Below are positions 30,386 through 47,419 of a stretch of DNA of 64,000 nt, piece by piece. The stretch is from an uncultured Thermodesulfobacteriota bacterium (GTDB lineage: Bacteria > Desulfobacterota > GWC2-55-46 > JADFVP01): assembly GCA_964472295.1 (NCBI GenBank), contig CAYYJQ010000002.1, positions 32,074-96,073 on the forward strand, given 5' to 3'. The notes beneath the pieces were generated by a model. It was given only the letters and a program-made list of their open reading frames with translations, did not search any database and was not told where the DNA came from. Made by a program: the position numbers and the translations under genes. The stretch's first letter is position 1. Each line of letters starts with the position of its first letter.

Positions 30386-31132
30386 ATGAGCCTATCGGAG
30401 ACCAACAAGAGGATCTGGGACGGATTTGTCCCTGATTACGTTGACAAGAGGGTGGAGAAGATCCTCGACCTCCTGCCCTCTTCCCTTAAGAACCCCCGCT
30501 ATCTTGACATAGGTTGCTCCAACGGGGCGGCGACAATGCTCGTGGCAGGACGCATAGGGGCGGACGTGGTAAAGGGCGTTGACCTTGTGCTCACTGACGA
30601 GGCAATAAAAAGGGGCGTTGACGCCTCAGCCAATGACCTTAACAGCGGCGAGCCGCTACCATTTGACGACAACTCCTTTCACGTCGTAACGTGCATGGAG
30701 ACCCTTGAGCACGTCCATGACACGGACTTCCTCCTCTCGGAACTACGCCGCGTCCTCCAAGACGACGGCACAGCCATAGTGGACATTCCGCGCCTTGACT
30801 CCATGATGAACGTCCTACTCCTCTTCTTCGGTTTTCAGCCCCCTGGAGTTGAGTGCTCGGCAAAAAAAAGATACGGCGCCATAAACGAGGGGAGCATCCT
30901 TACAGGCCATGTATCGTACTTTACAAAGCGGGCCTTCATGGAGATACTCGGGGCCAGCGGCTTCAATGTCCTTGAATTCGCCCAGAGCGGGCAGAAGAGC
31001 GACTGGGAGGCCGTGCAGGCAAAGCTTGGCCGAAGGCCCGGAACCATTCCAAGGCTCCTCTGGACGCTCTACGACCTTATCCCCTTCAAGAAAGACTACA
31101 TGATAGCGAAGATCGGGAAAAAGATTAGATGA
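30386..31132 (+). CDS. class I SAM-dependent methyltransferase
   Basis: Motif I YLDIGCSNGAATMLVAG and an acidic motif II. It overlaps the next gene by 4 nt (ATGA). Confidence 0.7.
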   Translation: MSLSETNKRIWDGFVPDYVDKRVEKILDLLPSSLKNPRYLDIGCSNGAATMLVAGRIGADVVKGVDLVLTDEAIKRGVDASANDLNSGEPLPFDDNSFHVVTCMETLEHVHDTDFLLSELRRVLQDDGTAIVDIPRLDSMMNVLLLFFGFQPPGVECSAKKRYGAINEGSILTGHVSYFTKRAFMEILGASGFNVLEFAQSGQKSDWEAVQAKLGRRPGTIPRLLWTLYDLIPFKKDYMIAKIGKKIR

Positions 31133-34100
31133 AGTCACCCGAGAGGCCCACTTACCCCCATGCAACCGGTCTTGCCGTCTTTATCCTCGCCATAGCCGCG
31201 TACCTTCCCATCTCGCAAGTAGACCTCTCCATGCTCGACGAGGGCGCTCTCCTCTATGTGGCCGAGAGGCTCACAAAAGGGGATGTCCTCTACAGAGACA
31301 TTGTAACAGGCATAATGCCGGGGGTATATTACCTTCAGGCGCTCTTCTTCTCGGTCCTCGGATACTCGGTCATGGCGGGCCGTGTCCTTGCCTGCGCAAC
31401 TCTGGCGCTGAACGCGCTCCTTGTCTATCTTCTCGCCACCCGATTCTTAAGTAAAAAGACCTCAATCGCCCTTGGCCTATTCTTCATCTCCACGGCGCTA
31501 CCGTCCTACTGGATGGCCGGTTACTCGCAGGTATCCCTTACCTTTGTCCTCACAGGCCTCCTCTTTTTTCTCCGTTATCTCGGCTCCAGGGGTCTTGTTG
31601 ACCTTCTCATCTCAGGGGCCGCGGCGGGCATGGCCCTTGTCTTCAAACAGAACTACGGCGTCTTCATTACAGCGGGGCTCGGCATGACGCTTATGGCGAG
31701 GCTGGTCTTAAAGAGAGAATGGCGGCCCGTACTTGTCTTTTCCGCGGCCTTCCTTACCCCTCTTATCGTGATGGTCCTCTATTTCTATTCCACCGGGGCC
31801 CTCCCCAATATGACAGAATATACCTTCTTCTCGCTCTTCAAGAAGGCGGCGGGCGCGTACTACAAGCCCTATCCCCTTCTCTCGCGAACTGACCCCCTGT
31901 TTTTCAACCATGAACTCTACAACTTCATCCCCTTCAGGAACCTCGCCATCTGGTCCTTAAAGGAGGGATATGCCCGCGAGGCCTGGGTGCGCGCCGCCGT
32001 GGTCATTATATACGCCCTCGCGCCCCTTATAATAGCGTCTTCCCTTGTTTACGGGGCCATCGCCCTTGTACGGAGAAGACTCAAGTGGGAAGAGGGCGTC
32101 CTCATGCTCGTATCCTTCCTCCTCTTTCTCGGCGTATTCCCTCGTAGCGACATTCACCACCTTATCTTCATAGCCCCGCCCCTCATGGTCACAGGGGCCA
32201 TGCTCGCGGGCAGGCTACCCGTGGGGGGCAAGGCCCTCATGATCTCAAGGACCTGCGCCCTTGTCATCATGGGTCTTTTCTCGGCCCTCTGCCTTGTCTC
32301 GTCATACATGCCGCTCCTGCACCCAGCGCCAGGCCGCGAAAAAGTAGCCCTCGACATACCAAGGGCAGGGGGGATAAGGGTCGAGAAGCGCGAGGCCAGG
32401 GTAATAAGGGCCGTTACGAATCATATCAGAAAGCATACCCGGCCAGACGAGCCAATCCTCGTGGTGCCAACAGGGGCCATGTACTATTTTCTCGCGGGCA
32501 GGAGGAGCGTGGTCCCATACCCCCTCATAATGCCCGGCGCCATGGACGAGGCCGTTGTAATCAAGGCCATGGAGAAGGCCTCGCTCAGATACATAATCTA
32601 CTCGGACATGAGCTTTGACGAGGAGACCCTCAGCCGGCACATGCCCCTTATCCATGATTACATACAAAAGAACTACAGTATAGACCCCTCCTATCCATTA
32701 AGAGAGACGGGCGGGAATGTCTATGTCCTGAAGAGGGGAAGGCCCGGAGAAGAAATAACCCCCCTCGATAGCGAGGCCGGTGAGGCCCTCGTGCATACGC
32801 GCGGCAGACATCTGCCCGTGCTCCTTGACCTTGCAGGGGGCCTTGAGAAGGCCCGTAGCGGCGTAATCCTCGGGAGCGGCAGGGGCGTGCCGCTCTTCCG
32901 GGAAAATCAGGTAACGCGCAACGCCTGGCTCCTGAAGGACGCCATACTACAGGAACCGGGCCGTGGCTGGTCCAAGGTATACACCGCCTTCAGCCTCCAC
33001 GTCCCGCGCTCCTCTGGACTCAGGTTCTCCATAGGCCAGTCCCCTGTGGTATGGTCCCCATGGTTCGGCGACGGGGCCCTCTTCGAGGTCTTTTTATATG
33101 ATAAAAGCGAGGGGAGACTCGTGAGGCTCTTCTCACGCTACCTTGACCCCAAGAACAACCTTAAGGAACGAAGGTGGTTCACCTATCTTGCGGGTTTGAA
33201 AAAATACGGCGGTCGTGATTTAATAATATACTTTGTAACATCTGGCGGGCCGCGGCTCAACCTCACCCTGGGAGAGATGAACAGGTGGAGGCAGATTGAC
33301 ATGGCCGGCTGGGGCGCCCCGGCAATCGTGGGCATTGGCAAGGTAGAGGGCTCCAATGGCGCCATGGTCTCTGGCAAGGCACAGAAGGTCCTCCTGCCGC
33401 CAATGGCCGCGCGGGAGATGGCGCGCTTTGACGACATATCCTTTATACTGGAAGAAAAAAAGAAGTACCCCGGTGATTATGACGTGCTCCTCACGCTGGG
33501 GAGGATATATGAGAGGGCGGGCAGAAAAGATAAGGCAATCAGGGAGTACAGGGCCGCACTTAAGTCCTACGCCCGGGGAAGCGAGGCAAGGAACCTCCTT
33601 TCGAGATATTATATAAGGAAGGGCCAGCATAAAAAGGCCGAGGGCCTTCTAATTGAGGGCCTCGGCCTTGACCGGACGGACGCGAAGCTCAATATGACCA
33701 TGGCGGACCTTTACAGGCGCAGGGGAAAATATGAGATGGCCGTCATGAGTTACGGCCAGGTTCTTCGCGCACGGCCAGGTGACGAGTGGGCTCTCCTTGG
33801 GCTGGCCCGCACCTACCTCGCCGAAAAAAAACCCGGGAAGGCCATGTCCGAGGCCAATAAGGCCCTTGACGCGCACCCCGGGAGCACGGCGGCCCTGATA
33901 ATGATTGGCGATGCCTACAGGCTCAAGAAAGAATGGAAAAGGGCCGAAAAAACTTACAGGAAGGCCTTGAGGACAAATCCGGACAGCCCGGCCCTGAAAC
34001 TCAAACTCGCCCTCTCGCTTAAGGCCATGGGCAGAACTGAAGAGGCCCTGAAGGCTTACGGCGAGGCCCTCACGGCAAGGGGGGCCAGCGATGCCCTCAA

Positions 34101-34158
34101 GAAGATGGCGAAAAAGGAAATATCCTCCATCTTGAGACAAAAGAAGGAACAGAGATAA
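31129..34158 (+). CDS. GT-C-fold membrane glycosyltransferase (ArnT/PMT-like, polyprenyl-P-sugar dependent) with periplasmic DUF and C-terminal TPR repeats
   Basis: Roughly 12 N-terminal TM helices. The central soluble domain FEVFLYDKSEGRLVRLFSRYLDPKNNLKERRWF...IYFVTSGGPRL is shared with the protein at 39648..43298. The C-terminal 250 aa are TPR repeats. Confidence 0.65.
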   Translation: MKSPERPTYPHATGLAVFILAIAAYLPISQVDLSMLDEGALLYVAERLTKGDVLYRDIVTGIMPGVYYLQALFFSVLGYSVMAGRVLACATLALNALLVYLLATRFLSKKTSIALGLFFISTALPSYWMAGYSQVSLTFVLTGLLFFLRYLGSRGLVDLLISGAAAGMALVFKQNYGVFITAGLGMTLMARLVLKREWRPVLVFSAAFLTPLIVMVLYFYSTGALPNMTEYTFFSLFKKAAGAYYKPYPLLSRTDPLFFNHELYNFIPFRNLAIWSLKEGYAREAWVRAAVVIIYALAPLIIASSLVYGAIALVRRRLKWEEGVLMLVSFLLFLGVFPRSDIHHLIFIAPPLMVTGAMLAGRLPVGGKALMISRTCALVIMGLFSALCLVSSYMPLLHPAPGREKVALDIPRAGGIRVEKREARVIRAVTNHIRKHTRPDEPILVVPTGAMYYFLAGRRSVVPYPLIMPGAMDEAVVIKAMEKASLRYIIYSDMSFDEETLSRHMPLIHDYIQKNYSIDPSYPLRETGGNVYVLKRGRPGEEITPLDSEAGEALVHTRGRHLPVLLDLAGGLEKARSGVILGSGRGVPLFRENQVTRNAWLLKDAILQEPGRGWSKVYTAFSLHVPRSSGLRFSIGQSPVVWSPWFGDGALFEVFLYDKSEGRLVRLFSRYLDPKNNLKERRWFTYLAGLKKYGGRDLIIYFVTSGGPRLNLTLGEMNRWRQIDMAGWGAPAIVGIGKVEGSNGAMVSGKAQKVLLPPMAAREMARFDDISFILEEKKKYPGDYDVLLTLGRIYERAGRKDKAIREYRAALKSYARGSEARNLLSRYYIRKGQHKKAEGLLIEGLGLDRTDAKLNMTMADLYRRRGKYEMAVMSYGQVLRARPGDEWALLGLARTYLAEKKPGKAMSEANKALDAHPGSTAALIMIGDAYRLKKEWKRAEKTYRKALRTNPDSPALKLKLALSLKAMGRTEEALKAYGEALTARGASDALKKMAKKEISSILRQKKEQR

Positions 34159-34961
34159 TGTCCATATCCATAACAAGGGGGCTCAAGCGGTCCCTTGAGT
34201 TCAGGAACCTTGTCACCGAGTTCGTAAAGAGCGACCTTCGGGCACGGTACGTGGGCTCAACGCTGGGCATCTACTGGTCCATAGTAAACCCCATTCTGCT
34301 CCTCATCATCTACACGCTCGTCTTCTCTGTCATACTCGGCGTAAGGTTCAAGGGCGGGCAGAGTTCTGACCACTACGCCCTCTATCTCTTCTGCGGCATG
34401 CTCCCCTGGCTCACCTTTCAGGAATCCATCACCACCAGCGTCGGAATACTGCCAAAGAACGCGAGCCTCATAAAAAATGTCGTATTCCCGCTAAAGACCC
34501 TGCACACCTCCATGGTCATATCAGGACTCATAAGCGAACTCATCGGCATAGCCATACTCCTTGTCTTCAGGCTTGTGCTCCTACACTCCATCGGAAACCT
34601 CTTCCCACTGCTCCTGGTAATCATATTCTTCCAGTTTTTCATGACCATGGGTTTTGCCCTCTTTCTCTCGGCCCTCAACGTCTTTTTCCGGGACGTGAAC
34701 CCCCTCATGAGGCCGCTTATCAGGATGTGGATGTACCTTACCCCGGTATTCTTCCCCCTCTCCATAGTACCCTCCACGGTAAGGTTCTTCATATACTTGA
34801 ACCCCATGACCCCCCTCATCATGGCGTACAGGGACGTGCTCCTGAATGACAAACTCCCTGGAGTAGGCTTTATTTACTTCATGATATTCTCGATAGTCAT
34901 CTTTATATACGGGTACAGGTTCTTCACAAAAAACCATATGAAACTCGTGGACCTCCTATAG
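34158..34961 (+). CDS. wzm: ABC-2 type polysaccharide exporter permease (Wzm/KpsM/TagG family)
   Basis: LRARYVGSTLGIYWSIVNPILLLIIYTLVF. Six TM helices. It is followed immediately by the ATPase gene. Confidence 0.8.
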   Translation: MSISITRGLKRSLEFRNLVTEFVKSDLRARYVGSTLGIYWSIVNPILLLIIYTLVFSVILGVRFKGGQSSDHYALYLFCGMLPWLTFQESITTSVGILPKNASLIKNVVFPLKTLHTSMVISGLISELIGIAILLVFRLVLLHSIGNLFPLLLVIIFFQFFMTMGFALFLSALNVFFRDVNPLMRPLIRMWMYLTPVFFPLSIVPSTVRFFIYLNPMTPLIMAYRDVLLNDKLPGVGFIYFMIFSIVIFIYGYRFFTKNHMKLVDLL

Positions 34962-34964
34962 ACA

Positions 34965-36218
34965 ATGATTGCCATCAAGGCCGAGAACCTCGGCAAAAAA
35001 TACGAGGTATACAAAAAACCCTCTCACCGGCTTGCGGAGATGCTCTTTCCAAAGGGCAAGAAGAGGCACAGGGACATGTGGGCCTTGAGAGAAGTCGACT
35101 TCGAGATAGAGAAGGGCTCTACCTGCGGGATTATCGGCCATAACGGGGCTGGAAAGAGCACGCTCTTAAGGCTCCTCTCGGGGCTCAGCCAGCCCAGTAC
35201 GGGCAGGATAACCACAAGGGGCAAGGTCACGAGCGTGCTTCAGCTTGGCGCTGGCTTCAGGGGAGACTTCACTGGAAGGGCGAACCTCTTCATGAACTGC
35301 TCCCTCATGGGTATCCCCAGAGAGGTAATCGAGACCAAGTTAGAGGAAATCCTGGACTTTTCCGAACTCGGGCACTTCATAGACATGCCCGTGAATACCT
35401 ATTCCTCTGGCATGAAGATGCGCCTTACCTTCTCCATCATGGTTGCCCTTGAACCGGAGATACTCCTCATAGACGAGGTCATTGCCGTTGGGGACGAGTA
35501 CTTCAGGGGGAAATGCTTCAACAAGATAAACGACCTCAAGCGCAGCGGCACGACCCTTGTAATAGTCACGCACAGCCTTTACAATCTAAGGAGCATCTGC
35601 GACCGCGTCATACTCCTTGAAAGAGGCCGCCTTGTTGCCAACGGCCAGCCCGACGAGGTGGTGGACAAATACCTCAACATGGTCCATGCCCAGAGAGAGG
35701 AACAGATACATAAGATAAATACTCGGGTAAAGGCAAAGGATTCGAGACCACGATGGGGCGAGGGCACCATAACCATAGACAAGGTGCGGCTCCTCGACAA
35801 TACCGGAACCGAACGCTACGTCTATCAGCCCGGTGACAGGGTAATAATCGAGGCCTCCTACAGTGTCAGAGAGACTACGAAAAAACCCGTCTTCGGCATA
35901 GGCATTTTCAGAAGCGACGGCACGTATATCTCGGGACTCAACCACCTCTGGCACAGAGACCCCCTTGAGATAGAAGAACTCAGGGAGGGAACACGGGGCA
36001 CCATAACCTGCCGAGTGAACGAACTCCCCCTTCTCAAGGGTTCTTATTATATATCCTATTACTGTTACGACCACAGCGAACTCGCCCCCACGCCCGTGGA
36101 CCACATGGAAAAGGCCCTCATCTTCGAGGTCATGGAGGGTAATGTCATAGAGCATGGCATGGTCTCCATTGCCACGTCGTGGGAATTAAGGCAGAACGAG
36201 GCCCATGAACCCGCTTAA
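34965..36218 (+). CDS. wzt: ABC polysaccharide exporter ATPase (Wzt/KpsT/TagH family) with C-terminal carbohydrate-binding extension
   Basis: Walker A GHNGAGKST, signature YSSGMKMRL, Walker B ILLIDEV. A roughly 170-aa C-terminal extra domain is typical of Wzt terminal-residue-binding modules. Confidence 0.85.
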   Translation: MIAIKAENLGKKYEVYKKPSHRLAEMLFPKGKKRHRDMWALREVDFEIEKGSTCGIIGHNGAGKSTLLRLLSGLSQPSTGRITTRGKVTSVLQLGAGFRGDFTGRANLFMNCSLMGIPREVIETKLEEILDFSELGHFIDMPVNTYSSGMKMRLTFSIMVALEPEILLIDEVIAVGDEYFRGKCFNKINDLKRSGTTLVIVTHSLYNLRSICDRVILLERGRLVANGQPDEVVDKYLNMVHAQREEQIHKINTRVKAKDSRPRWGEGTITIDKVRLLDNTGTERYVYQPGDRVIIEASYSVRETTKKPVFGIGIFRSDGTYISGLNHLWHRDPLEIEELREGTRGTITCRVNELPLLKGSYYISYYCYDHSELAPTPVDHMEKALIFEVMEGNVIEHGMVSIATSWELRQNEAHEPA

Positions 36219-37260
36219 ACTGCCCTTTGACCAGTACCAGAGATACCGCGTTGCTTGCGACGCCATAGAGGCGGTGCGCGAGGAGGGGGAAAAACTCACC
36301 GTCCTTGACGTTGGCGGCAGCCCGGGCCTTGCGCTGGATTTTCTCCCCAAGGACCGTGTCTTTGTCATCGACAGGACTGATGCCTCGAAGGGGCCTTTTA
36401 TCCGCGGTGACGGCACGGCCATGCCCTTCAGGGACAGGGCCTTTGACGTGGTAATGAGCGTGGACGTGCTCGAACACATCGCGCCCGAGAGAAGAGAGAC
36501 CTTCCTGAATGAACTCAAGCGTGTCTCGAAGAGATACGTCTTTATCGCCGCGCCCTTCCGCTCGGACGCCGTGGTAGAGGCCGAACGCGTCCTATATGAC
36601 GTAATAAAGGCCGCAAGCGGCGAGGAGCACGCCTTCTTGAAGGAGCACCTTGAGCACGGCCTGCCCGAAGAGTCAGGCGTGAGAGAGACCCTGGAGGGAG
36701 ACAGATGGGAGACCCTCTCCATACCCAACGGCGCCCTCAAGCGCTGGCTCCCCATGATGGCGCTCATGCTTTACATGATAGGGGACGAGAACCTCAGGGA
36801 CATTGCCGGACGGGTAAGCGCCTTTTATAACTCCAACTACTACGAGGACGACAACAGGGAACCCTCGTACCGCCGCCTTGTGGGCGCGGCAAGGGGCGGG
36901 TTCCCGCAAGGGGCCGCCGAAAAGATAGCGTTCCTTGCCTCAGGTGAAAAAGACGAAAAGGGACTGGACCTCTCGTGGCTCTCACTCTTTATCACCCTCT
37001 TCGGGTACAGAGACCTTAAGAAGGCACGCCATGACGAGAGAGAAGAATTCAAAAAAGTCATCGAGGCGAGGGATAACCATATAGAGAGCCTCAAGGAGAC
37101 GGTTACGGAGAAGGACAGGCGCATAAAAAGACAGAAAGATACGATAGAGGGTCAGAAAAAGACCATTGAAGCGCTCAGGAAGAGGCTTGAGACGCTGGAA
37201 AGATCCCCTGCCGTAAAGGCCCTCAAGGGGATTGGCGTCATAAAGAAGACCGGGAAATAA
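36205..37260 (+). CDS. SAM-dependent methyltransferase with C-terminal coiled coil (WbdD-like chain-terminating/capping enzyme candidate)
   Basis: LTVLDVGGSPGLALDFL...FDVVMSVDVLEHI methyltransferase fold. C-terminal heptad-like ESLKETVTEKDRRIKRQKDTIEGQKKTIEALRKRLETLE. It overlaps wzt by 14 nt. Confidence 0.6.
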   Translation: MNPLKLPFDQYQRYRVACDAIEAVREEGEKLTVLDVGGSPGLALDFLPKDRVFVIDRTDASKGPFIRGDGTAMPFRDRAFDVVMSVDVLEHIAPERRETFLNELKRVSKRYVFIAAPFRSDAVVEAERVLYDVIKAASGEEHAFLKEHLEHGLPEESGVRETLEGDRWETLSIPNGALKRWLPMMALMLYMIGDENLRDIAGRVSAFYNSNYYEDDNREPSYRRLVGAARGGFPQGAAEKIAFLASGEKDEKGLDLSWLSLFITLFGYRDLKKARHDEREEFKKVIEARDNHIESLKETVTEKDRRIKRQKDTIEGQKKTIEALRKRLETLERSPAVKALKGIGVIKKTGK

Positions 37261-37268
37261 GGGTTCTA

Positions 37269-38672: not shown

Positions 38673-38696
38673 GGGGATGACACCTCTATCTTAACC

Positions 38697-39644: not shown

Positions 39645-39647
39645 TAT

Positions 39648-42600
39648 ATGCGCATCGCCCTTGTTATACATGGTTTTCCGCCGGAGAACATGGCAGGCTC
39701 CGAGGTATATACCTGTAACCTTGCCGTGGAACTCGCAAAAAAACACGAGGTCTTTGTCTTTCAGAGGACCGCCGACCCGGACCGGCCAGAGTACGACGTT
39801 CAGAAACGCGGGTACCGGGGCCTCAACATAACCGCCATAAACAACAACTTCCGAAAGTGCCCGGATTTTTCCTGGACCTATCGTAACGACGAGATAGCGA
39901 AAAAATTCGGCGAGTTCCTTGACGAGACCAGGCCGGATGTAGTGCATTTTCACCACCTTACGTGCCTCTCCACCACCTGCGTGGAAGAGGCAAAAAAAAG
40001 AGGTCTTCCCGTTGTATACACGCTTCACGACTTCTGGCTCATCTGCCAGAGGGGCCAACTCCTCACAAGGGACCTCCATATATGCCCCGGCCCCTCGGTA
40101 GAGGCCTGCGCCGAATGTCTCGCAGGGCAGCTCGCCATGGGCGAGAGGACGAAAAAGGCCGCCGAGGCCCTCAAGAAGGGCCTTCCCGTGCTCGGGGGCA
40201 AGGGCAGGGCAAAGGAACTCCTCAGAAAGGTCTTTCTCTTCTCATCAAAGACCCTGCAGAGGGATGGGACCAAGGCCGCGGGGAAGATAAGACAACGGGA
40301 AGGGCATATAAGAGAGACCTTGTCTCTTATTGACAGGTTCATCTCTCCATCAGAGTTTGTAAGGGAAAAATTCATAGAGGCCGGAGTACCTGAAGACAGG
40401 ATAACCTTTCTTGACAATGGCTTTGATACCGCCATCTTCAAGGGGCTGAAGAGAAAGCCCTCCAAGAAGATACGCTTCGGATACATAGGCACATGGATAC
40501 CATCAAAGGGTGTGCATGTGCTCCTGAAGGCCTTCAGCCGCGTAAAAGAGAGCAAGGCCACGCTCACCGTGTACGGACGCCACGCCGCATATGATGGTTA
40601 CAGGGATTATGGAAAAGACCTTGAGGCCCTTGCGGACAACAAGGCCATACGCCTTGCCGGTCCCTATGACAATTCTGACGTTGGGAAGATACTCTCCGGG
40701 ATAGACGTCCTTATCGTGCCCTCCATCTGGTACGAGAACTCCCCCCTTACTGTGCACGAGGCCTACCTTGCCGGGGTGCCCGTCCTCGCTTCAGACATCG
40801 GCGGCCTTGCCGAGTACGTGGGCGAGGGCCGGGGCGGCATGAACTTTCGCGCGGGAGACGACAAGGACCTTTACGAAAAGATAAAGGAGATTATGGATAA
40901 CCCCTCCCTTATCGAGAAGATGAGAAGCACAATCCCACCCGTAAAGTCCATAGAGGAAAACGCAGGAGAGTTGGAGGGGATATACAGGGACCTTGCCAGC
41001 CCGGCCATGACCAGTGGTTATGACTTCATAAGCAATATCTTCACGGCAGAGGTCAAAAAAGACGGCAAGGGCTTCACCGAGTGCGCCTACCCCAAGTACA
41101 GGCACAAGGAGATGGTGAACGAGGGCGCCTTCAAGGTTGGAGGCGAGGAACGCCGCGTACTCTTCGAGCACCCCGCCATACGCGTTGGCGATACGTCCAT
41201 GACAGTGGCCTTCAGGAAAGTCAATGTAAAGGAAGGCGACGCACTCGAATTCGGCATTGGCGTAAACGAAGAGGCATGGACTAAGCCCGGCGACGGCGTG
41301 GACTTCGAGGTCCTTATAAAGGACGGCGAGACGCTGAAGCCTGTCTTCAAAAAATACATTGACCCCAAGCGAAATGAGGCGGATAGAAAGTGGTTTGATG
41401 AAAGAGTAGACCTTGGCGCATTTGAGGGCCGGACCATTGAAATACTCTTTCGCACCTCTGCCGGGCCGCGCGGCGATACGGAGTATGACTGGGCAGGCTG
41501 GAGCGAGCCCGCGGTGGTAAGCGGGGACGGCGCGTGTCGTTGCCTCCTTGACGAGTTGGACCGCGCCTTTATTGTGCGTTATGAAAAAAAGGAAGAGCAG
41601 GTCCTCGAAGACGTCCTGTATCTTGGCGACGACGCCCGGCAGGTGGTCTCTCTTGAGAACGGCGTGGAACTCGTCTACAGGGGCGTTACAGTTCCAGAGG
41701 GGGCGAGACTGAGGCTCGGCATAGGCGGAAGGAGCGGCCCCTCTGGCATGAGCCTCAAGGGGGGGCTTGAGATAGACGTAACAAGAGACGGGTCGAGGGA
41801 GACCATCTTCTCAAAAAACGCCCTTAGCGTGCTCTCAAAGCGCCTTACGAGCAAGGCCTGGCACGACGTGGAACTGGACCTTGAGAGATACTCGGGCCAG
41901 ACCCTTGACTTTCACTTTCGTAACAGGAGCAGTCAGATAATGGGCCTTGGCCCCCTTGAGATAATTTCAAAGGAAAAGAAAGAGATACGCCCACGGAAGT
42001 CAGAGCATACAAACGTCCTCATCATCACCCTTGACGCCGTGCGGGCCGACCGCATGGGTTTCATGGGCAACAAGGCCATGAAGACACCCTGCATGGACCG
42101 CTTAGCCCGCGAGGGCGTAGTATTTACCAACCACTTCGCCCAGTCGCACATTACAATACCATCGCACATGTCTCTTCTCTCATCAAAATTTCCGCGTACC
42201 ATAAAGACCCTCGATAACTACCAGTACAACCTCCCGTCCCTCCAGACCATAGCCGAGAGGCTCGGAGACAAGGGCTACAGGAGCTCGGCGGTGGTAAGCG
42301 TATCTCTACTCAACCCCTCGTGGTGCCGGGGAATAGAGCGGGGGTTTGACGACTACTTCCCAGTGCTTGGAAGGGAGCGCACCGCCTCACAGGGCATGAA
42401 CATCCTTGGCAACTGGATAGAAAAAAACAGCGAGAACCCCTTTTTCTCGTGGATACACCTCTATGACGCCCACTTCCCATACCAGGCCCCAAAACCCTTT
42501 CACACCATGTTCAAGGGGGGCGCGTCCCGTAGCGGCGCGCCCGCCATTGACGAGATAAAACTACACCCCCAGACAAGAAAATGGCTTGCTGACAGGGGCA

Positions 42601-43298
42601 TCACGGCCATGGACGCCCCAGTGGCCGAGTACAACGCCGAGGTGACATACCTTGACCATGAACTAAACCGCCTCTTCACCCGCATGGAGGCCCTCGGGGT
42701 CCTCGATAATACCCTTGTCATGATAACGGCTGACCACGGCGAGTGCCTCGGCGAGAGGGGGAGTTTCTTCTCCCACGTCGGGGTCTTTGACGAGACCATG
42801 CGAATACCCCTTGTCATGCGCCTTCCCGGGAGGCTTCCCGCCGGAAAGAGGATAGACGCCATGACCATGAACGTAGACCTCGTGCCAACGGCCATGGACA
42901 TACTCGGCCTCGCAGAAGAAAAAAAGGGCATGGAGGGTAAAAGCCTCCTGCCCCTCGTGGAAGGGAGCGCCAAGGGGATCCATGAGTATGTCATCGACGA
43001 GGGCGGCCACGGTGCCCAGGTGGCCCTGAGGACAGAAAAATGGAAGTTCATAAAGACCTTTGACGACATCTCCTATCTTGCCAACTTCCAGCGAAACAAG
43101 GGCGATGTGGAACTCTTTGACCTTGAGTCTGACCCGGGGGAGAAAAAGAACATTGCCAAGGAAAACCCGGAGACCTGCAGGCGTCTTTCCGGCCTCCTCG
43201 ACAAGTGGCTCGCCTCGCGAGCGGGAGCGGAGCAGGCCGAGATGATAGAGGCCGACGAAGAGACAAAGAAGAAACTCGAGGCCCTGGGGTATCTATAG
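39648..43298 (+). CDS. multidomain 1216-aa protein: GT4 glycosyltransferase + two copies of an uncharacterised domain + C-terminal sulfatase-family (alkaline-phosphatase superfamily) domain with Thr/His in place of the Cys/Arg sulfatase motif
   Basis: N-terminus MRIALVIHGFPPENMAGSEVYT...EAYLAGVPVLASDIGGLAEYV (GT4), with Cys4 insert ICQRGQLLTRDLHICPGPSVEACAEC. DUF copy 1 FEVLIKDGETLKPVFKKYIDPKRNEADRKWF...EILFRTSAGPRGDTEYDWAGWSEP, then a second degenerate copy. C-domain NVLIITLDAVRADRMGFMG...HITIPSHMSLLSSKFP...TADHGECLGERG...DLESDPGEKKNIAKE. It ends with the tail KKLEALGYL. Confidence 0.75.
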   Translation: MRIALVIHGFPPENMAGSEVYTCNLAVELAKKHEVFVFQRTADPDRPEYDVQKRGYRGLNITAINNNFRKCPDFSWTYRNDEIAKKFGEFLDETRPDVVHFHHLTCLSTTCVEEAKKRGLPVVYTLHDFWLICQRGQLLTRDLHICPGPSVEACAECLAGQLAMGERTKKAAEALKKGLPVLGGKGRAKELLRKVFLFSSKTLQRDGTKAAGKIRQREGHIRETLSLIDRFISPSEFVREKFIEAGVPEDRITFLDNGFDTAIFKGLKRKPSKKIRFGYIGTWIPSKGVHVLLKAFSRVKESKATLTVYGRHAAYDGYRDYGKDLEALADNKAIRLAGPYDNSDVGKILSGIDVLIVPSIWYENSPLTVHEAYLAGVPVLASDIGGLAEYVGEGRGGMNFRAGDDKDLYEKIKEIMDNPSLIEKMRSTIPPVKSIEENAGELEGIYRDLASPAMTSGYDFISNIFTAEVKKDGKGFTECAYPKYRHKEMVNEGAFKVGGEERRVLFEHPAIRVGDTSMTVAFRKVNVKEGDALEFGIGVNEEAWTKPGDGVDFEVLIKDGETLKPVFKKYIDPKRNEADRKWFDERVDLGAFEGRTIEILFRTSAGPRGDTEYDWAGWSEPAVVSGDGACRCLLDELDRAFIVRYEKKEEQVLEDVLYLGDDARQVVSLENGVELVYRGVTVPEGARLRLGIGGRSGPSGMSLKGGLEIDVTRDGSRETIFSKNALSVLSKRLTSKAWHDVELDLERYSGQTLDFHFRNRSSQIMGLGPLEIISKEKKEIRPRKSEHTNVLIITLDAVRADRMGFMGNKAMKTPCMDRLAREGVVFTNHFAQSHITIPSHMSLLSSKFPRTIKTLDNYQYNLPSLQTIAERLGDKGYRSSAVVSVSLLNPSWCRGIERGFDDYFPVLGRERTASQGMNILGNWIEKNSENPFFSWIHLYDAHFPYQAPKPFHTMFKGGASRSGAPAIDEIKLHPQTRKWLADRGITAMDAPVAEYNAEVTYLDHELNRLFTRMEALGVLDNTLVMITADHGECLGERGSFFSHVGVFDETMRIPLVMRLPGRLPAGKRIDAMTMNVDLVPTAMDILGLAEEKKGMEGKSLLPLVEGSAKGIHEYVIDEGGHGAQVALRTEKWKFIKTFDDISYLANFQRNKGDVELFDLESDPGEKKNIAKENPETCRRLSGLLDKWLASRAGAEQAEMIEADEETKKKLEALGYL

Positions 43299-43300
43299 AT

Positions 43301-44002: not shown

Positions 44003-44005
44003 GGG

Positions 44006-46117
44006 GTGAGAAGGCCTGCAACCCTCTTGGCGGCGCTCCTCCTCATTGGACTGGCCGCCCTCTACTGGAAGATATGCGTCCTCATGGCCGCCACGGGCAG
44101 GGTCTCGCCTTTTGGCTCCGAGAACCTCTACGTACTCTACTACCCCCTCATACGCTACGGCGTAGAGTCCATGAAGGCCCTGCATATCCCCCTCTGGAAC
44201 CCCTACCAGTCCCTTGGAGCGCCCTTTCTGGGCTCAGCGCTCTTCGGTCTCTTCTCGCCCTTCAGTTTTCTCTACTACATACTGCCGACGCACATTGCCA
44301 TGGGCTGGTCCACCGTTCTGAACATAGCCCTTGCAGGGTTCTTCACCTTTTTATTCCTCAATAAGAGCCTTAAGATAGCACCTGCCGGCGCCCTCGCCGG
44401 GGCCATTGTCTTCATGTTCTCAGGGCCACTGCTTCTTGAGATAATACACCCATCGCTCGTAGGGGCCATGAGTTTTCTACCCCTTCTGCTCTATCTCACG
44501 CAAAAGATATTCGAGAGAGAGAGCACCCGGTGGGCGGCACTCTTTGCCGTCATACTTGCCTGCCAGATGCTTACAGGCGCCGTGCAGGTAATCGTCCATA
44601 GCATCTTCCTGACAGGGGCCTACGCCATGGCGCTCTTCTACCATGCCTGGCGTGACAAAAGGGCAGGCATGAGGCCCCTTGTCCTCATCGTCATCGGCGG
44701 CCTTGTGGCCATTGCCCTCTCTTTAATACAGTGGCTTCCGCTCCTTGAACTCTCGGGCCATACTGGAAGAGACGCGAGCGGGCTCTCCCTCAAAGACGCC
44801 GAGCCATTCATATCCGTCTTCACCCCCGCCTTTGTCATAAAGAGTCTCCTCTTCGGCGGACGCGGCATGACTATTGGTCTTATTCCTGTATTACTGGGCC
44901 TCTTTGCCGTCTTTAACCGCAGGTCTCGTGGCCGCACGCTTTTTTTCGCCTTCATGGCCCTTCTCACGCTCCTCATGGCCTTTGGCACTCATACGCCCCT
45001 TTACGGCATTTACTACCACTATATACCCACAGGCAAGATGTTCCGCGTGCCCGTGCGCTGGCTCTGGCTAACGGCATTTTCCGTGGCCGTACTCGCGGCC
45101 TACGGCGCGGGGGCCATCTTCAGGGAGTTGGAGGCCCGAAGGGGCCTTCGCGCCGCGGCCCTCATCATCATCCCCTTCCTCATTACGGTCTTTCTCTTTC
45201 AGAAGAACGTGATGAGACTCTATAACCACCCCCAGCAGACGCCAGCCCTCTTCACGCGCCACGCGGAAGAAGGCGCATTCCTCAGAAAGGTTCAGGGCAC
45301 GTACCGCACATACATATCAAGCGACTTTGGAAGAGATTTTTCGCTCCTTCAGAAGTTCGGCACCATAGAGAAGGTCTATGTCCTCAATGACTACGAATCC
45401 CTGAGCCTCGGCTCCTACCAGAGGTTCGCGGCCGCGGTCCTCGGTAGAGACGATATGCTCTCAAAAAAAATCTTCTACGGCGCCTTCATGCTCAAGAACG
45501 GCCAGAAGAGCCTCCGCCTCATGAGCCTCTTAAGCACAGGCTTTGTAATGGAAAAAGGCCATGGCCCCTTCGGCAAAAAAACGCCACCCGGCATGGACGA
45601 GATATACAACAAGAAGGGCGTTAAGATATACCGCTATAAAGGCGCCCTCCCGAGGGCCTATGTGGTCTACAGGAGCGAGACCATAAAGGACGAGACCACG
45701 GCCCTTAAGAGGCTCGCATCTCCTGCCTTCAACCCCAGGGCCGCCGCAATTCTTGAGCATGACGCGGGCCTTGCCAAGGCCCCCCCGCAAGGCCCTGCCC
45801 TTACAAGGGCGCGCATAACGCGCCTTCTCCCCGAAAAAGTGGAGATAAGGGCAGACCTCCGGGAAAGGGGCGTCCTCGTCATGACGGACTTTTTCTATCC
45901 CGGATGGCGCGCCTACGTGGACGGAGCGGAGGCCCCCATTCTCAGGGCAAACACCATCATGAGGGGCCTTGTCCTTGATAAAGGCCCTCACAAGGTGGTA
46001 TTTGTCTACAGGCCCCTGCCCTTCAGGATAGGGCTCTGGGTATCTATCCTTACCCTTGCGGGACTTCTCATATACCTCGGCCTTGACATCAAGAAAGGTG
46101 CGCGGAAAAGACCATGA
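44006..46117 (+). CDS. YfhO-family GT-C membrane glycosyltransferase
   Basis: At least 12 TM helices. The periplasmic C-terminal domain ends ...MTDFFYPGWRAYVDGAEAPILRANTIMRGLVLDKGPHKVVFVYRPLPF plus a final TM helix, the YfhO hallmark. Confidence 0.65.
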   Translation: MRRPATLLAALLLIGLAALYWKICVLMAATGRVSPFGSENLYVLYYPLIRYGVESMKALHIPLWNPYQSLGAPFLGSALFGLFSPFSFLYYILPTHIAMGWSTVLNIALAGFFTFLFLNKSLKIAPAGALAGAIVFMFSGPLLLEIIHPSLVGAMSFLPLLLYLTQKIFERESTRWAALFAVILACQMLTGAVQVIVHSIFLTGAYAMALFYHAWRDKRAGMRPLVLIVIGGLVAIALSLIQWLPLLELSGHTGRDASGLSLKDAEPFISVFTPAFVIKSLLFGGRGMTIGLIPVLLGLFAVFNRRSRGRTLFFAFMALLTLLMAFGTHTPLYGIYYHYIPTGKMFRVPVRWLWLTAFSVAVLAAYGAGAIFRELEARRGLRAAALIIIPFLITVFLFQKNVMRLYNHPQQTPALFTRHAEEGAFLRKVQGTYRTYISSDFGRDFSLLQKFGTIEKVYVLNDYESLSLGSYQRFAAAVLGRDDMLSKKIFYGAFMLKNGQKSLRLMSLLSTGFVMEKGHGPFGKKTPPGMDEIYNKKGVKIYRYKGALPRAYVVYRSETIKDETTALKRLASPAFNPRAAAILEHDAGLAKAPPQGPALTRARITRLLPEKVEIRADLRERGVLVMTDFFYPGWRAYVDGAEAPILRANTIMRGLVLDKGPHKVVFVYRPLPFRIGLWVSILTLAGLLIYLGLDIKKGARKRP

Positions 46118-47214
46118 CCAGGACCCCCCCACTCGTTAGCATCATTATCATACACTATGGAGACGCGGGCGTGCTCGGCGAGTGCCTCGCCTCGCTAAGG
46201 TCCATAAAATACCCTGATGTAGAGTTCATCGTCCTCTCCAACTCCCCGCGAGACAGCCTCCTTGATGCCATAATCTCCGCTCACCCAGACAAAAAATTCA
46301 TCTTTACAGAGACCAACCTCGGTTATGCGGGAGGTTGCAACAGGGCCGTGGAGGCGGCCCGTGGAAAGTACGTCTTCATACTCAATAACGACGTAACCCT
46401 TGACTCCGACGCTGTTTCGCCCCTTCTGAAGGTATTGGAGGCAGACGGCAACATAGCCCTTGCCCAGCCAAAGATACTCTCCATGAGTGAGCCGGAGCGC
46501 TTTGAGTACTCCGGGGCCGCTGGAGGGCTCATGGACAGATACGGCTATCCCTTTGCCGCGGGAAGGATTTTCAATGATATAGAGCGTGACACCGGCCAGT
46601 ACGAAGAACCAAGAGAGATATTCTGGGCCTCAGGGGCCGCCCTCTTCGCAAGAAGAGACGTTATAACCAGGGCCGGCCTAATGGACGAGAGTTTCTTTGC
46701 CTACATGGAAGAAATCGACCTTGCCTGGCGCGTCCACCTAATGGGATACAAGGTCGTATACGTGCCAGGGGCGCGAATCTTTCACCTCGGGAGCCCCAAC
46801 CTGGACAGAAAAAGCGCCCGGCACCTCTACCTTAACCACAGGAACAACCTCGTCATGGTCCTCAAAAACTACTCACTTGCCTCGCTCCTTCGTACCCTCC
46901 CCCCAAGACTCGCACTCGAAGGCGCCACCATGCTATATGGCCTTGTACGCGAAAACCCCCTCAGGGCAAAGGCCATCATAAGGGCCATGCTGAACGTAAC
47001 TGGAAACATCCTAAGCATATTAAAGGAGAGAAAAAAGGCGCAGGCCATGAGGAAAGTCGGAGACGACGTAATACTCAAGAGGATGTATCACGGCTCCATA
47101 GCGGTCGAGTATTTCTTGAGAAAAAAAAGGACCATAAAAGAAATACCCGGTGCCGCGCCGCGGCCTTATGTGGATAGAAAAAACAAGAGAGGGAAAATAA
47201 AAGACAAAAGATAA
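46114..47214 (+). CDS. GT2-family glycosyltransferase (Glyco_tranf_2_3-like)
   Basis: VSIIIIHYGDAGVLGECLASL...NLGYAGGCNRA...ILNNDVTLD. The last 20 codons are Lys-rich and are encoded by a purine-rich stretch that merges into repeat element A, so the true stop may be uncertain. Confidence 0.75.
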   Translation: MTRTPPLVSIIIIHYGDAGVLGECLASLRSIKYPDVEFIVLSNSPRDSLLDAIISAHPDKKFIFTETNLGYAGGCNRAVEAARGKYVFILNNDVTLDSDAVSPLLKVLEADGNIALAQPKILSMSEPERFEYSGAAGGLMDRYGYPFAAGRIFNDIERDTGQYEEPREIFWASGAALFARRDVITRAGLMDESFFAYMEEIDLAWRVHLMGYKVVYVPGARIFHLGSPNLDRKSARHLYLNHRNNLVMVLKNYSLASLLRTLPPRLALEGATMLYGLVRENPLRAKAIIRAMLNVTGNILSILKERKKAQAMRKVGDDVILKRMYHGSIAVEYFLRKKRTIKEIPGAAPRPYVDRKNKRGKIKDKR

Positions 47215-47380: not shown

Positions 47381-47419
47381 AAAAAGGAGAGGCCCGCGCC
47401 CCCAAAGGGGACGCGGGCC
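47366..47419 (-). terminator. rho-independent terminator after the DUF2249-hemerythrin gene, embedded in repeat element A
   Basis: Stem GGCCCGCG/CGCGGGCC enclosing CCCC-AAA-GGGG, followed on the minus strand by CTCTCCTTTTTTTCTTCTTTTTTTT. Confidence 0.6.

Follow-up and report, generated by a model that had tools for sequence, protein, structure and literature searches.

Transporters of the Wzt_C type are known best from O-antigen systems, and some O-antigen ABC transporters function without caps. Carbohydrate-binding domains (CBDs) have been described as recognising the terminal moiety, and a coiled-coil protein has been called 'a characteristic marker' of assembly with a terminator of this kind (PMC11231755). 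In WbdD the C-terminal region spans residues 460-708 (PMC3482155), and ABC-dependent O-antigen pathways offer earlier examples of carbohydrate-binding modules (CBMs) on a GT-C and on a terminator (PMC11127046, PMC11231755). We analysed a 64-kb stretch of DNA (the window) from an uncultured, sulfate-reducer-type Thermodesulfobacteriota diderm, and propose that 11 of its genes (g1 to g11, Table 1) form an ABC-dependent capped-glycan pathway with periplasmic decoration, a proposal that we consider, as a whole, probable with appreciable room for doubt.

All 11 plus-strand ORFs at 30386-47214 are present at the coordinates given in the preliminary description, and every domain named there was confirmed by Pfam search. 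Neighbouring genes overlap or are spaced by at most 24 nt (from g1 to g11: -4, -1, 3, -14, 8, 24, 3, 2, 3 and -4 nt). Gene order is kept in 7 Thermodesulfobacteriota/'Deltaproteobacteria' MAG contigs, with protein identities of ~51-78%, and the synteny includes the upstream divergent Wza / phosphoglycosyltransferase / LuxR unit. Because the order recurs in these related contigs, the arrangement is not due to chance, and the view of these genes as one overlapping or abutting set is borne out. Within the divergent promoter-like region, sigma-70-like matches lie at 30252-30281 on the plus strand (10/12) and 30172-30143 on the minus strand (11/12), both consensus matches only. At the other end, the hairpin is likely a bidirectional terminator; the T-run scored is that of the minus strand, and the plus-strand operon would presumably use the same element.

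Table 1. Features of the 11-gene operon and its boundaries (positions within the window)
Feature	Position	Strand	Evidence or remark
Divergent promoter-like region	30143..30281	.	between minus-strand LuxR-type regulator gene and g1
g1, stand-alone class I SAM methyltransferase, 248 aa, no coiled coil	30386..31132	+	Methyltransf_23/11/25 matches
g2, PMT_2-type GT-C, ~11 TM helices, CBM-like domain, C-terminal TPR, 1009 aa	31129..34158	+	
g2 CBM-like jelly-roll domain, residues 613-734	32965..33330	+	similarity to g8
g3, Wzm, ABC-2 permease	34158..34961	+	ABC2_membrane 62 bits
g4, Wzt, nucleotide-binding domain and C-terminal carbohydrate-binding domain, 417 aa	34965..36218	+	ABC_tran and Wzt_C (Pfam)
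g4 Wzt_C domain, residues 262-401	35748..36167	+	PF14524
g5, methyltransferase, coiled coil and basic tail, 351 aa	36205..37260	+	putative chain terminator/ruler
g5 long single helix, predicted coiled coil, residues 257-332	36973..37200	+	DSSP on AlphaFold2 model
g5 basic amphipathic C-terminal tail PAVKALKGIGVIKKTGK	37207..37257	+	family-wide charge
g6, GT4 glycosyltransferase, 467 aa	37269..38672	+	Glyco_transf_4 and Glycos_transf_1
g7, GT2 glycosyltransferase, 315 aa	38697..39644	+	Glycos_transf_2
g8, GT4, two CBM-like domains and alkaline-phosphatase-superfamily domain, 1216 aa	39648..43298	+	Pfam GT4, Sulfatase and SGSH_C
g8 two all-beta CBM-like domains, residues ~486-626 and 654-780	41103..41987	+	
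g8 alkaline-phosphatase-superfamily (sulfatase-fold) domain	42012..43166	+	Sulfatase 127.7 bits and SGSH_C
g8 Thr836, nucleophile position	42153-42155	+	alignment to solved sulfatases
g9, soluble DPM1/Ppm1-type polyprenyl-phosphate hexose synthase, 233 aa	43301..44002	+	PDB 5mlz match
g10, YfhO-family GT-C, 703 aa	44006..46117	+	YfhO 82.6 bits vs cutoff 28.5
g11, GT2 glycosyltransferase, 366 aa	46114..47214	+	Glycos_transf_2
Perfect 13-bp GC-rich hairpin	47391..47419	.	between convergent g11 and hemerythrin gene

The exporter is a Wzm/Wzt pair in which, as had been proposed, the C-terminal extension of Wzt is a genuine Wzt_C domain. Wzt_C in g4 scores 89.1 bits (cutoff 30.4) and covers profile positions 3-142 of 143, and the best PDB match of g4 is 8dku, a Wzt from Aquifex aeolicus that bears a CBD (E 9e-72; the alignment extends into the CBD). 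The isolated Wzt_C domain gave no pairwise match to any solved CBD; among NCBIfam models, g3 weakly matches those for galactan Wzm and KpsM. The exported product may not be an LPS O antigen: both halves of the locus diverge from one regulatory region and are jointly syntenic in 7 MAGs, the window holds a single phosphoglycosyltransferase, and a Wza-type exporter, a Wzc-type co-polymerase and a WecG/TagA-type enzyme are encoded next door, so that the plus- and minus-strand halves might build one composite capsule, EPS or lipoglycan that exits by the divergent Wza/Wzc or is held by another anchor. Against this, a MurJ/Wzx-like flippase and a Wzy_C protein give the minus-strand half a complete Wzx/Wzy route of its own, and the Wzt_C domain marks a transporter type best known from O-antigen systems. 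We regard a capsule, EPS or lipoglycan as unlikely but deserving of serious weight; if true, it would alter the fate of the polymer but not the logic of its assembly.

Decoration of the glycan would depend on g9, g10 and g2. As first described, a polyprenyl-P-sugar synthase lies directly 5' of a YfhO-like GT-C: g9 abuts g10, and both families are confirmed, g10 passing the YfhO profile search. The longest g9 ORF starts at 43205, and the start adopted here, 43301 (ATG, MKTLVILPTYNE), is also called by JGI, which places the g10 start at 44027. g9 matches the dolichol-P-mannose synthase (DPMS) of P. furiosus (PDB 5mlz) across the whole catalytic domain (E 1.8e-30), its best NCBIfam matches are polyprenyl-P sugar synthases, and Pfam assigns it to GT2. 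Of its former label, 'DPM1/GtrB-like', only the first half stands: hydropathy reveals no TM segment in g9, and because it is without GtrB's transmembrane helices we reject the GtrB-like assignment and call it DPM1/Ppm1-like. Judging from these homologies the sugar it moves is probably mannose, and the sole nearby nucleotide-sugar gene is mannose-1-phosphate-guanylyltransferase-like, fused to the phosphoglycosyltransferase. Hydropathy gives g10 more than 10 TM segments, with a soluble stretch at ~400-675 and the last TM segment at 675-693. It carries a nonsense variant in one locus (L002) and is missing from another (L009) that keeps g9 and g2; g9 therefore does not serve g10 solely. g2 has PMT_2 above cutoff (residues 64-205, 33.8 bits vs 26.1), an LDE motif after TM1 and TPR repeats at residues 773-991, in keeping with its description as an ArnT/PMT-like GT-C, and a hand-made positive-inside reading would place its C-terminal half in the periplasm. 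The 'three-component' system of the preliminary description thus has its synthase and GT-C but not its flippase, there being no flippase gene within the operon and no GtrA/SMR-like small membrane ORF anywhere in the window; the only candidate is a MurJ/MATE-like gene in the minus-strand half.

These same three enzymes could be a protein O-glycosylation system that shares the operon and leaves the glycan alone, on the model of actinobacterial PMT, eukaryotic TMTC or Streptococcus mutans PgfS/PgfM. PMT_2 with C-terminal TPR is the TMTC architecture (PMC7801869); TPR repeats usually bind proteins, and the combination fits O-mannosylation equally well. The g10 C-terminus weakly resembles PgfM1 and PgfM2, g9 resembles PgfS, and genes for large secreted repeat proteins (BNR/sortilin, FG-GAP/ASPIC) lie close by. 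Nevertheless, we find this reading improbable: the genes g2, g9 and g10 alternate with wzm, wzt and others in a tight operon kept in 7 MAGs, the CBM-like domain of g2 occurs also in the cytoplasmic, polymer-handling g8, and CBM-bearing GT-Cs are on record as decorating O antigens exported by ABC transporters (PMC11127046). It is plausible that the acceptor of the periplasmic GT-Cs is the exported glycan and not a protein, and the glycan is probably decorated outside the cell. The common domain (g2 residues 613-734 vs g8 residues 514-624, 35% identity, E 9e-16) bears in g2 the family motifs GDGxxFEV, DPKNNxxxRxW and DxAGWxxP, is covered by no Pfam or NCBIfam model, and is elsewhere fused to GT-C/TPR, YfhO, GDSL, sulfatase-fold, GT2 and B12-radical-SAM enzymes. 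Structural matches to its jelly-roll fold include domains that do not bind sugars, reelin and MAM among them; in g2 and g8 it probably binds the polymer backbone.

The putative terminator, g5, is a class I methyltransferase with a C-terminal coiled coil, as had been recognised: its AlphaFold2 model (pLDDT 90.5) consists of a core at residues 1-242 and a confidently modelled helix of 76 residues, ~11 nm if fully extended. Pfam returns the methyltransferase and weak coiled-coil family matches C-terminally, and a profile of the helix region weakly matches the GCN4, Sec2 and tropomyosin coiled coils. The last 30 residues carry a mean net charge of +4.7 across the family, and by analogy with WbdD the basic tail is a candidate membrane anchor. 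Our family search recovered 255 homologues with a common N-terminal core; among the 120 best-scoring, the C-terminal extension ranges over 56-376 aa and coiled-coil-like content from ~30 to 307 aa, a roughly ten-fold spread on a conserved catalytic core. The g5 start overlaps the end of wzt by 14 nt, and such coupling is widespread: species-representative genomes yielded 206 relatives, and in 65 of the 67 fetched loci with a wzt homologue the wzt stop and the start of the methyltransferase gene lie within 35 nt of each other. The coupled loci span Planctomycetota, Thermodesulfobacteriota, Chloroflexota and one Actinomycetes MAG. The median length of Wzt in g5-type loci is 419 aa, and Wzt there therefore carries a C-terminal extension. 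Because g5-type genes adjoin a wzt of this length so consistently, g5 appears to be a terminator and ruler in the manner of WbdD.

The WbdD-like logic proposed earlier fits the variation in coiled-coil length and the adjacency to wzt, but g5 is not a WbdD homologue, sequence and structure comparison having found no specific relationship. The structures nearest g5 are generic small-molecule and sugar methyltransferases, and its acceptor is accordingly read from gene context only. g5 might instead methylate internal residues or a non-glycan substrate, its short helix serving for oligomerisation or docking only, with chain length and export independent of a cap, as in those O-antigen ABC transporters that need none. 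We think this quite improbable in view of the coupling to CBD-bearing wzt across several phyla, the range of coiled-coil lengths on one catalytic core, the fusion in Chloroflexota of g5-type methyltransferase and coiled coil to polymerase GT modules, and the presence of Wzt_C, given the role of CBDs as terminal-moiety readers (PMC11231755). Cap or internal methyl groups could equally well come from g1, which passed none of the NCBIfam models and is present only in Thermodesulfobacteriota orthologous loci.

The remaining glycosyltransferases include g6, which shares 38% identity with the g8 GT4 module and whose counterparts in distant loci likewise lie 3' of the methyltransferase gene; the donor sugars of the two GT4 enzymes could not be inferred. 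g8 is assigned to the cytoplasm because hydropathy finds no TM segment, and its full architecture is restricted to 14 close orthologues. The former label 'GT4-sulfatase-like fusion' is right as to GT4 and the sulfatase fold, but the formylglycine motif is absent: T-I-P-S-H aligns with C/S-x-P-x-R of solved sulfatases, and all 14 orthologues keep T-[IV]-P-S-H and the metal-ligand motifs D / DHG without change. We reject a formylglycine sulfatase, and the domain is better described, from its motifs, as a putative threonine-nucleophile alkaline-phosphatase-superfamily domain. That it is nonetheless a true sulfatase trimming a sulfated glycan, matured by the radical SAM/SPASM enzyme of the neighbouring half (22244-23284), is very improbable, although its best family matches are choline sulfatase and arylsulfatase and an SGSH_C subdomain is present: Thr invariably replaces Cys/Ser and His replaces Arg, threonine is not known to be convertible to formylglycine, T-x-P-x-H-x-S-[LI]-L matches the nucleophile motif of nucleotide pyrophosphatase/phosphodiesterases, and no sulfotransferase was found among ~40 large window ORFs scanned.

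Under the capped-glycan reading, a polyprenyl-diphosphate-linked glycan, for which the phosphoglycosyltransferase of the divergent unit is the probable priming enzyme, would be polymerised on the cytoplasmic face by g6, g7, the GT4 module of g8 and g11. Chain growth would be ended by g5, kept at the membrane by its basic tail, with an oligomeric coiled coil spacing the methyltransferase head from the polymerase so that a chain is methylated at its non-reducing end once it is long enough to reach the head. Wzt_C would then read the methyl cap, and Wzm/Wzt would export finished chains only. For the periplasmic side, g9 would provide polyprenyl-phosphate hexose, most likely mannose, to be flipped by a flippase outside the operon and used by g10 and g2. 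The jelly-roll domain probably tethers g2 and g8 to the backbone, and the g8 C-terminal domain would most likely give the nascent chain a phospho-substituent or take one away, and not desulfate it. What the analysis establishes is gene content, domain identities, folds, synteny and the coupling of wzt to the methyltransferase gene; the cap chemistry, the ruler action, the identity of the sugar, the GT-C acceptor and the role of the phosphatase-superfamily domain are inferred. The preliminary description is partly supported, with most of its logic retained.

The pathway would be of the type found in E. coli O8/O9a and Klebsiella. The g5 coiled coil, at 76 residues, is short compared with the WbdD C-terminal region. 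The Chloroflexota fusions, to GT4 and GT2 modules, reproduce the terminator-coiled-coil-polymerase order of K. pneumoniae O7 and O12 (PMC11231755). The operon is an ABC-export glycan design already known, with some new parts.

The eleven plus-strand genes listed in the preliminary description (here g1 to g11) are all present in the window, and a Pfam search bore out the domains proposed for them (see table). Successive intergenic gaps are -4, -1, 3, -14, 8, 24, 3, 2, 3 and -4 nt, with a divergent promoter-like region upstream of the operon and a hairpin downstream; an Rfam scan of the whole window matched no RNA family. Identical DNA is carried by the JGI metagenome contig Ga0256727_1000049, and the nearest named proteins originate from Thermodesulfobacteriota MAGs. 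In seven MAG contigs (L003-L009) the order g1-g11 is kept together with the divergent unit encoding Wza, a phosphoglycosyltransferase and LuxR, at protein identities of ~51-78%. The operon is conserved, and a chance run of ORFs is ruled out. All ten proteins scanned (g1-g10) missed the NCBIfam equivalog cutoffs and so cannot be named as known orthologues, and homology searches gave only unspecific matches for the donor sugars of the GT4 enzymes. The additional GT2 gene beyond the hemerythrin gene may still be part of the glycan locus.

Positions and domain content of the operon, its neighbours and homologous loci (positions refer to the window unless a locus is named; domains of g1-g11 are from Pfam)
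Feature	Position (strand)	Content
Operon g1-g11	30386-47214 (+)	
g1		methyltransferase
g2		PMT_2, residues 64-205 (33.8 bits, above cutoff); TPR, residues 773-991
g3		ABC-2 permease; ABC2_membrane, 62 bits
g4		ABC_tran; full-length Wzt_C (PF14524), residues 262-401, profile positions 3-142 of 143, 89.1 bits (cutoff 30.4)
g5		methyltransferase; C-terminus with weak coiled-coil family matches
g6		GT4
g7, g11		GT2
g8		GT4; Sulfatase, 127.7 bits; SGSH_C, 60.8 bits
g9		GT2
g10		YfhO, 82.6 bits (cutoff 28.5)
g10 codon 163	44492-44494 (window); 10275-10277 (L002)	TAT in the window; TAG stop in L002
Hairpin	47391-47419	13 bp, GC-rich
DUF2249-hemerythrin gene	47447-48196 (-)	convergent to the operon; downstream in L009 as well
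Further GT2 gene	48527-49597 (+)	beyond the hemerythrin gene, outside the operon
Phosphoglycosyltransferase	27375-29129 (-)	584 aa, the only one in the window, kept in 7/7 syntenic MAGs; fusion of mannose-1-phosphate-guanylyltransferase-like nucleotidyltransferase, left-handed beta-helix and Bac_transf domain
Radical SAM/SPASM protein	22244-23284 (-)	resembles anaerobic sulfatase-maturing enzyme
MurJ-family protein	20655-22211 (-)	MatE match
Four paralogous alkaline-phosphatase-family proteins	10850-19869 (-)	PF01663; no obvious signal peptide; in the Wzx/Wzy-type half
Two large repeat proteins	3295-8015 (-)	one BNR/sortilin-like with N-terminal hydrophobic segment, one FG-GAP/ASPIC; far end of the glycan region
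Sulfatase/metalloenzyme-type protein	1109-3115 (-)	apparently secreted
L009, syntenic MAG contig	17606-19499	no g10; g9, g2 and final GT2 retained, hemerythrin gene next, as in the window
L011, Planctomycetota MAG (1.48 Mb contig)	8682-13545	four tandem g5-type paralogues after wzt, C-terminal extensions of different lengths
L017, homologous locus	4499-6313; 2-1453	CBM-like domain fused to B12-binding radical SAM enzymes and GT2
L018, homologous locus	2378-4162	as L017

The best explanation of this operon, and in our judgement a fairly probable one, is a pathway of four steps taken jointly. GT4 and GT2 enzymes would polymerise a glycan in the cytoplasm; membrane-anchored g5, with its coiled coil as a spacer, would terminate the chains; Wzm/Wzt would export them in a cap-dependent manner; and g2 and g10 would add hexose in the periplasm from a lipid donor made by g9. 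Both g8 and g2 would stay bound to the chain through their CBM-like domains, and a phospho-modification of unspecified type would fall to the phosphatase-superfamily domain of g8.

The transporter consists of an ABC-2 permease gene (g3) adjoining an NBD gene (g4) homologous to Wzt/TagH, with matches to Aquifex aeolicus Wzt at E 9e-72 and to TarH/TagH at E 1e-50 to 1e-58. The nearest solved relative of g4 is this CBD-bearing A. aeolicus protein (8dku), and the alignment extends into the CBD. Compared by itself with PDB sequences, the C-terminal domain of g4 gave no significant pairwise match to solved CBDs, so that its assignment draws on two sources, the Pfam profile and the full-length alignment. 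Wza is encoded in the conserved divergent unit, and Wzm and Wzt in the operon itself; it is possible, though we think it the less probable course, that the polymer exits through Wza/Wzc as a capsule or EPS and not as an O antigen, which would alter its fate but not the logic of its assembly.

For the periplasmic branch, g9 aligns over its full length with the dolichol-phosphate-mannose synthase of Pyrococcus furiosus (5mlz, E 1.8e-30). Because it has no TM segment, in contrast to GtrB and CsbB with their TM helices, g9 is DPM1/Ppm1-like; the "DPM1/GtrB-like" enzyme proposed from the window survives as a polyprenyl-phosphate sugar synthase of the DPM1/Ppm1 type but loses its likeness to GtrB. 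Its suggested pairing with a YfhO GT-C holds, as g9 abuts g10, a gene pairing already known from CsbB/YfhO (PMC5836110), and the predicted PMT-type GT-C with TPR repeats was recovered in g2. An LDE motif can be read at residues 36-38 of g2, after TM1; a hand-made positive-inside reading suggests ~11 TM helices for the protein, assigns this acidic motif to the first outer loop and puts the C-terminal half, comprising the CBM-like domain and the TPR repeats, probably in the periplasm. No sequence relatives of g2 or g10 were found among solved structures. The label "three-component" applies to two-thirds: the GT2 synthase (g9) and the GT-Cs (g10, g2) are there, but the operon lacks a dedicated flippase, and a hydropathy screen of every ORF with 60 aa or more revealed no GtrA/SMR-like small multi-TM ORF in the window. 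The sole candidate is the MurJ-family protein in the other half of the window, presumably the Wzx of the minus-strand pathway. In Citrobacter, a MATE-family flippase serves a comparable periplasmic glycosylation system (PMC11127046).

The YfhO-type gene is absent from one syntenic MAG contig (L009), and in a second metagenome contig that carries the window locus with only 7 SNPs in 11 kb (L002, JGI 3300023444) it is interrupted by a stop codon, so that the population includes a naturally occurring knockout of this GT-C. Since g10 is missing in the one and interrupted in the other, the YfhO enzyme is a variable accessory, and g9 does not act solely for g10. Mannose is suggested as the sugar by the DPMS-like g9, the PMT_2-type g2 and the neighbouring guanylyltransferase-like domain. 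The acceptor of g2 could be a protein or a glycan. Systems built on DPM1 with PMT/TMTC, or on Ppm1, mannosylate proteins or lipomannan, and if the GT-Cs act on proteins the two large repeat proteins listed in the table are possible targets; g2, by contrast, sits in a wzm/wzt operon, and we consider it unlikely that the GT-C branch glycosylates proteins.

An AlphaFold2 model of g5 (70-sequence alignment, pLDDT 90.5) comprises a class I methyltransferase core (residues 1-242), an uninterrupted helix (257-332) and a short terminal helix. The 255 homologues retrieved are alike over their first 230-270 residues, with an N-terminus of invariant LPFDQYQRY type, and their lengths are bimodal (~330-370 and 450-615 aa). 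Among the 120 best-scoring of the 255, C-terminal extensions measure 56-376 residues, with a coiled-coil-like content that scales from ~30 to 307 residues. The last 30 residues in the family are basic (mean net charge +4.7) and amphipathic, making membrane association and polymerase recruitment candidate roles. A scan of one genome per species yielded 206 g5 relatives, the best 80 of whose loci are mostly from Planctomycetota, with others from Thermodesulfobacteriota, Chloroflexota and Actinomycetes. A Wzt homologue is present in 67 of these 80 loci, and in 65 of the 67 the methyltransferase starts no more than 35 nt from the wzt stop codon, often overlapping it. The median Wzt length in these loci is 419 aa, corresponding to a C-terminal extension of ~170 aa that is detectably similar to the Wzt_C region of the window in 65 loci. 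The two exceptions to wzt coupling are from Chloroflexota and encode the methyltransferase and its coiled coil as fusions with GT4 and GT2 modules. A GT4 gene follows the g5-type gene in the window and in the homologous loci L017, L018 and L076. The tandem g5-type paralogues of L011, and the two found in each of the loci L014 and L021, may represent several rulers or caps per transporter.

Chain terminators are described as a catalytic head, a coiled-coil "molecular ruler" and a membrane-proximal C-terminus working with a CBM-gated transporter, and a coiled-coil protein is considered "a characteristic marker" of this ABC-transporter-dependent termination strategy (PMC11231755, PMC3482155). The WbdD-like logic proposed for g5 is sustained in its layout of methyltransferase and coiled coil and in its linkage to wzt, but not in ancestry: specific sequence or structural homology to the methyltransferase (and kinase) domains of WbdD was sought, and none was detectable beyond the class I methyltransferase fold. 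Weighing this missing homology against the layout and the wzt coupling, we regard it as quite improbable that g5 is not a terminator.

The GT4 module of g8 is a paralogue of g6 (38% identity), and in other organisms its counterparts are joined to additional modules of GT4, GT2, methyltransferase, radical SAM or sulfotransferase type; GT4, middle region and sulfatase fold come together only in 14 close orthologues of g8. Having no TM segment, g8 is taken to be cytoplasmic. Its description as a GT4-sulfatase-like fusion is correct as to fold, but T-I-P-S-H is aligned where sulfatases have the formylglycine motif C/S-x-P-x-R, and because Thr cannot turn into formylglycine, a true sulfatase is highly improbable. 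All 14 orthologues carry T-[IV]-P-S-H without exception, and the metal-ligand motifs LDAVRAD and DHGE are conserved too. Maturation of g8 as a sulfatase by the neighbouring radical SAM/SPASM enzyme was likewise considered and rejected as incompatible with the nucleophile motif. T-x-P-N-H, which the g8 motif resembles, is the nucleophile motif of nucleotide pyrophosphatase/phosphodiesterases, and we read the C-terminal domain as a putative phosphoester-handling enzyme, with its reaction unassigned, rather than as a sulfatase. Some proteins in which a related T-x-P-S-H domain is joined to a g8-type middle domain bear Tat or lipoprotein signals. The literature searched contained nothing relevant on cytoplasmic GT-sulfatase-like fusions. 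With g8, six alkaline-phosphatase-superfamily proteins are encoded within 64 kb, and none of those checked has a canonical, correctly placed C/S-x-P-x-R target.

A CBM-like domain is shared by g8 (residues 514-624) and g2 (613-734) at 35% identity (E 9e-16). The first such domain of g8 has no Pfam match at E <= 10 and no NCBIfam match at E <= 0.01; its fold is a beta-jelly-roll sandwich as in known CBMs, which also matches reelin and MAM domains. A second domain in g8 is only moderately confident because the alignment for structure prediction was shallow (18 rows), and a word-indexed homologue search with the middle region returned 5 proteins only. An exhaustive HMMER search found the domain in 1,896 cluster representatives at E <= 1e-3; among the best 149 of these, 65 have at least seven TM segments and 49 have none. 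Partners in a sample of 70 carriers include PMT_2 with TPR, sulfatase-fold, YfhO, GDSL and Wzy_C domains, no single family being common to more than 18 of the 70. A stand-alone CBM-plus-phosphatase protein (P0241) is encoded on a 2.7 kb contig. The fusions in L017 and L018 lie directly upstream of the coiled-coil methyltransferase gene and suggest cytoplasmic radical-SAM tailoring of ABC-pathway glycans.

Most economically, the CBM-like domain would be a polymer-binding module bringing tailoring enzymes to one glycan at both membrane faces. We extend this to a tentative joint reading, to which we give less than even credence: the ~130-residue jelly-roll would be a new, widespread glycan-binding family, without Pfam or NCBIfam model, that tethers GT4-phosphatase-superfamily fusions, GT2 and B12-radical-SAM enzymes in the cytoplasm and GT-C/TPR, YfhO and SGNH enzymes and lipoproteins outside it, while g8, whose sulfatase scaffold bears a Thr in the nucleophile position, would either attach a phospho-substituent to the growing chain or take one off. 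If so, the g8 step could belong to a phosphate-containing cap that is then methylated by g1 or g5. We know of no cytoplasmic phospho-substituent step described for ABC-transporter-dependent glycans.

The principles involved have all been described before: the CBD-gated ABC transporter, the coiled-coil terminator, decoration of ABC-exported glycans of the three-component type, and CBMs on biosynthetic enzymes. What appears to be new is a large non-WbdD methyltransferase/coiled-coil family coupled to wzt across several phyla, together with the CBM-like family and a Thr-type sulfatase-fold domain fused to a cytoplasmic GT4. The first may already figure in Mann et al. 2019 (Glycobiology 29:822), reportedly the likeliest survey to list terminators of this kind. 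None of these findings overturns current understanding. The Whitfield-type model, with its terminator, its ruler and ABC export gated by the cap, would reach beyond enterobacterial O antigens to uncultured Thermodesulfobacteriota and, via the g5 family, to numerous genomes of Planctomycetota, Chloroflexota and Actinomycetes, about whose surface glycans hardly anything is known. In this family one conserved catalytic head carries coiled coils that range in length from ~30 to 300 residues, a natural series with which the ruler idea could be tested across lineages, and the CBM-like and Thr-type domains offer concrete leads to new activities in glycan binding and glycan modification.

The gene order wzm-wzt-terminator-GT4 is that of E. 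coli O8-type loci. The operon shares this neighbourhood, and Wzt_C on Wzt, with the polymannan systems of E. coli O8 and K. pneumoniae O5, and g5 resembles their methyltransferase-only WbdD in having the methyltransferase at its N-terminus and, towards the C-terminus, a coiled coil and a basic tail (PMC3482155, PMC7685785, PMC11231755). GT4 polymerase modules (there the WbdA/B/C mannosyltransferases) and a nearby GDP-mannose-type supply gene are further likenesses. By contrast, the coiled coil of g5 is much shorter and its relation to WbdD is one of class I fold only; the operon adds a stand-alone methyltransferase, GT2s, two GT-Cs and the GT4-CBM-phosphatase-superfamily fusion, and we can only infer its sugar. 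[quoted passage not shown] The Chloroflexota g5 relatives are fused to GT modules, as are ORF6 and WbbB. Caps in these systems are methyl-phosphate or beta-Kdo, whereas g5 has neither a kinase-like domain nor a GT module, and the CBM-like domain lies on g8 and g2 instead of on the terminator as in O7.

In the Shigella/Salmonella GtrA-GtrB-Gtr*, Klebsiella O2 gml and Citrobacter youngae ORF12/14/15 systems, a GT2 polyprenyl-phosphate sugar synthase and GT-Cs act on a polymer after its export, as proposed for the operon; ABC-transporter-dependent O antigens are among these polymers, and in Citrobacter a backbone-binding CBM is part of the GT-C (PMC11127046). Unlike them, the operon has no GtrA/SMR or MATE flippase, its synthase is of the soluble DPM1 type where GtrB has TM helices, and there is one synthase gene for two mutually unrelated GT-Cs, of YfhO type and of PMT_2/TPR type. 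A GT2 synthase gene adjoins that of a YfhO-family GT-C in CsbB-GtcA-YfhO of Bacillus and Listeria lipoteichoic acid and in S. mutans PgfS/PgfM1/PgfM2 (PMC5836110, PMC7389260, PMC8035078). The host of the window differs in being diderm, with no teichoic acid, GtcA is absent, and g10 (703 aa) is shorter than the PgfM1 and PgfM2 profiles (955 and 884 positions).

The streptococcal group A carbohydrate and lactococcal cell-wall polysaccharide pathways also combine an ABC-exported homopolymer backbone with side-chain addition by GtrB-like and GT-C enzymes, and with an enzyme of the sulfatase family (alkaline-phosphatase superfamily); GacH is one phospho-substituent transferase of this kind. Enzymes of the GacH type are membrane-anchored and extracytoplasmic, whereas the g8 domain is fused to a cytoplasmic GT4, lacks TM segments and has an S1-sulfatase-like, not LtaS-like, fold. 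A sulfatase-like enzyme is mentioned in loci of the streptococcal/lactococcal type (PMC12599335). Soluble DPM1-type synthases supply PMT_2-clan GT-Cs in eukaryotic DPM1 with PMT/TMTC and in mycobacterial Ppm1 with PPM-dependent GT-Cs, and the GT-C-plus-TPR architecture of g2 is TMTC-like (PMC7801869), but differs from PMT/TMTC in that a CBM-like domain separates the TPR repeats from the membrane region.
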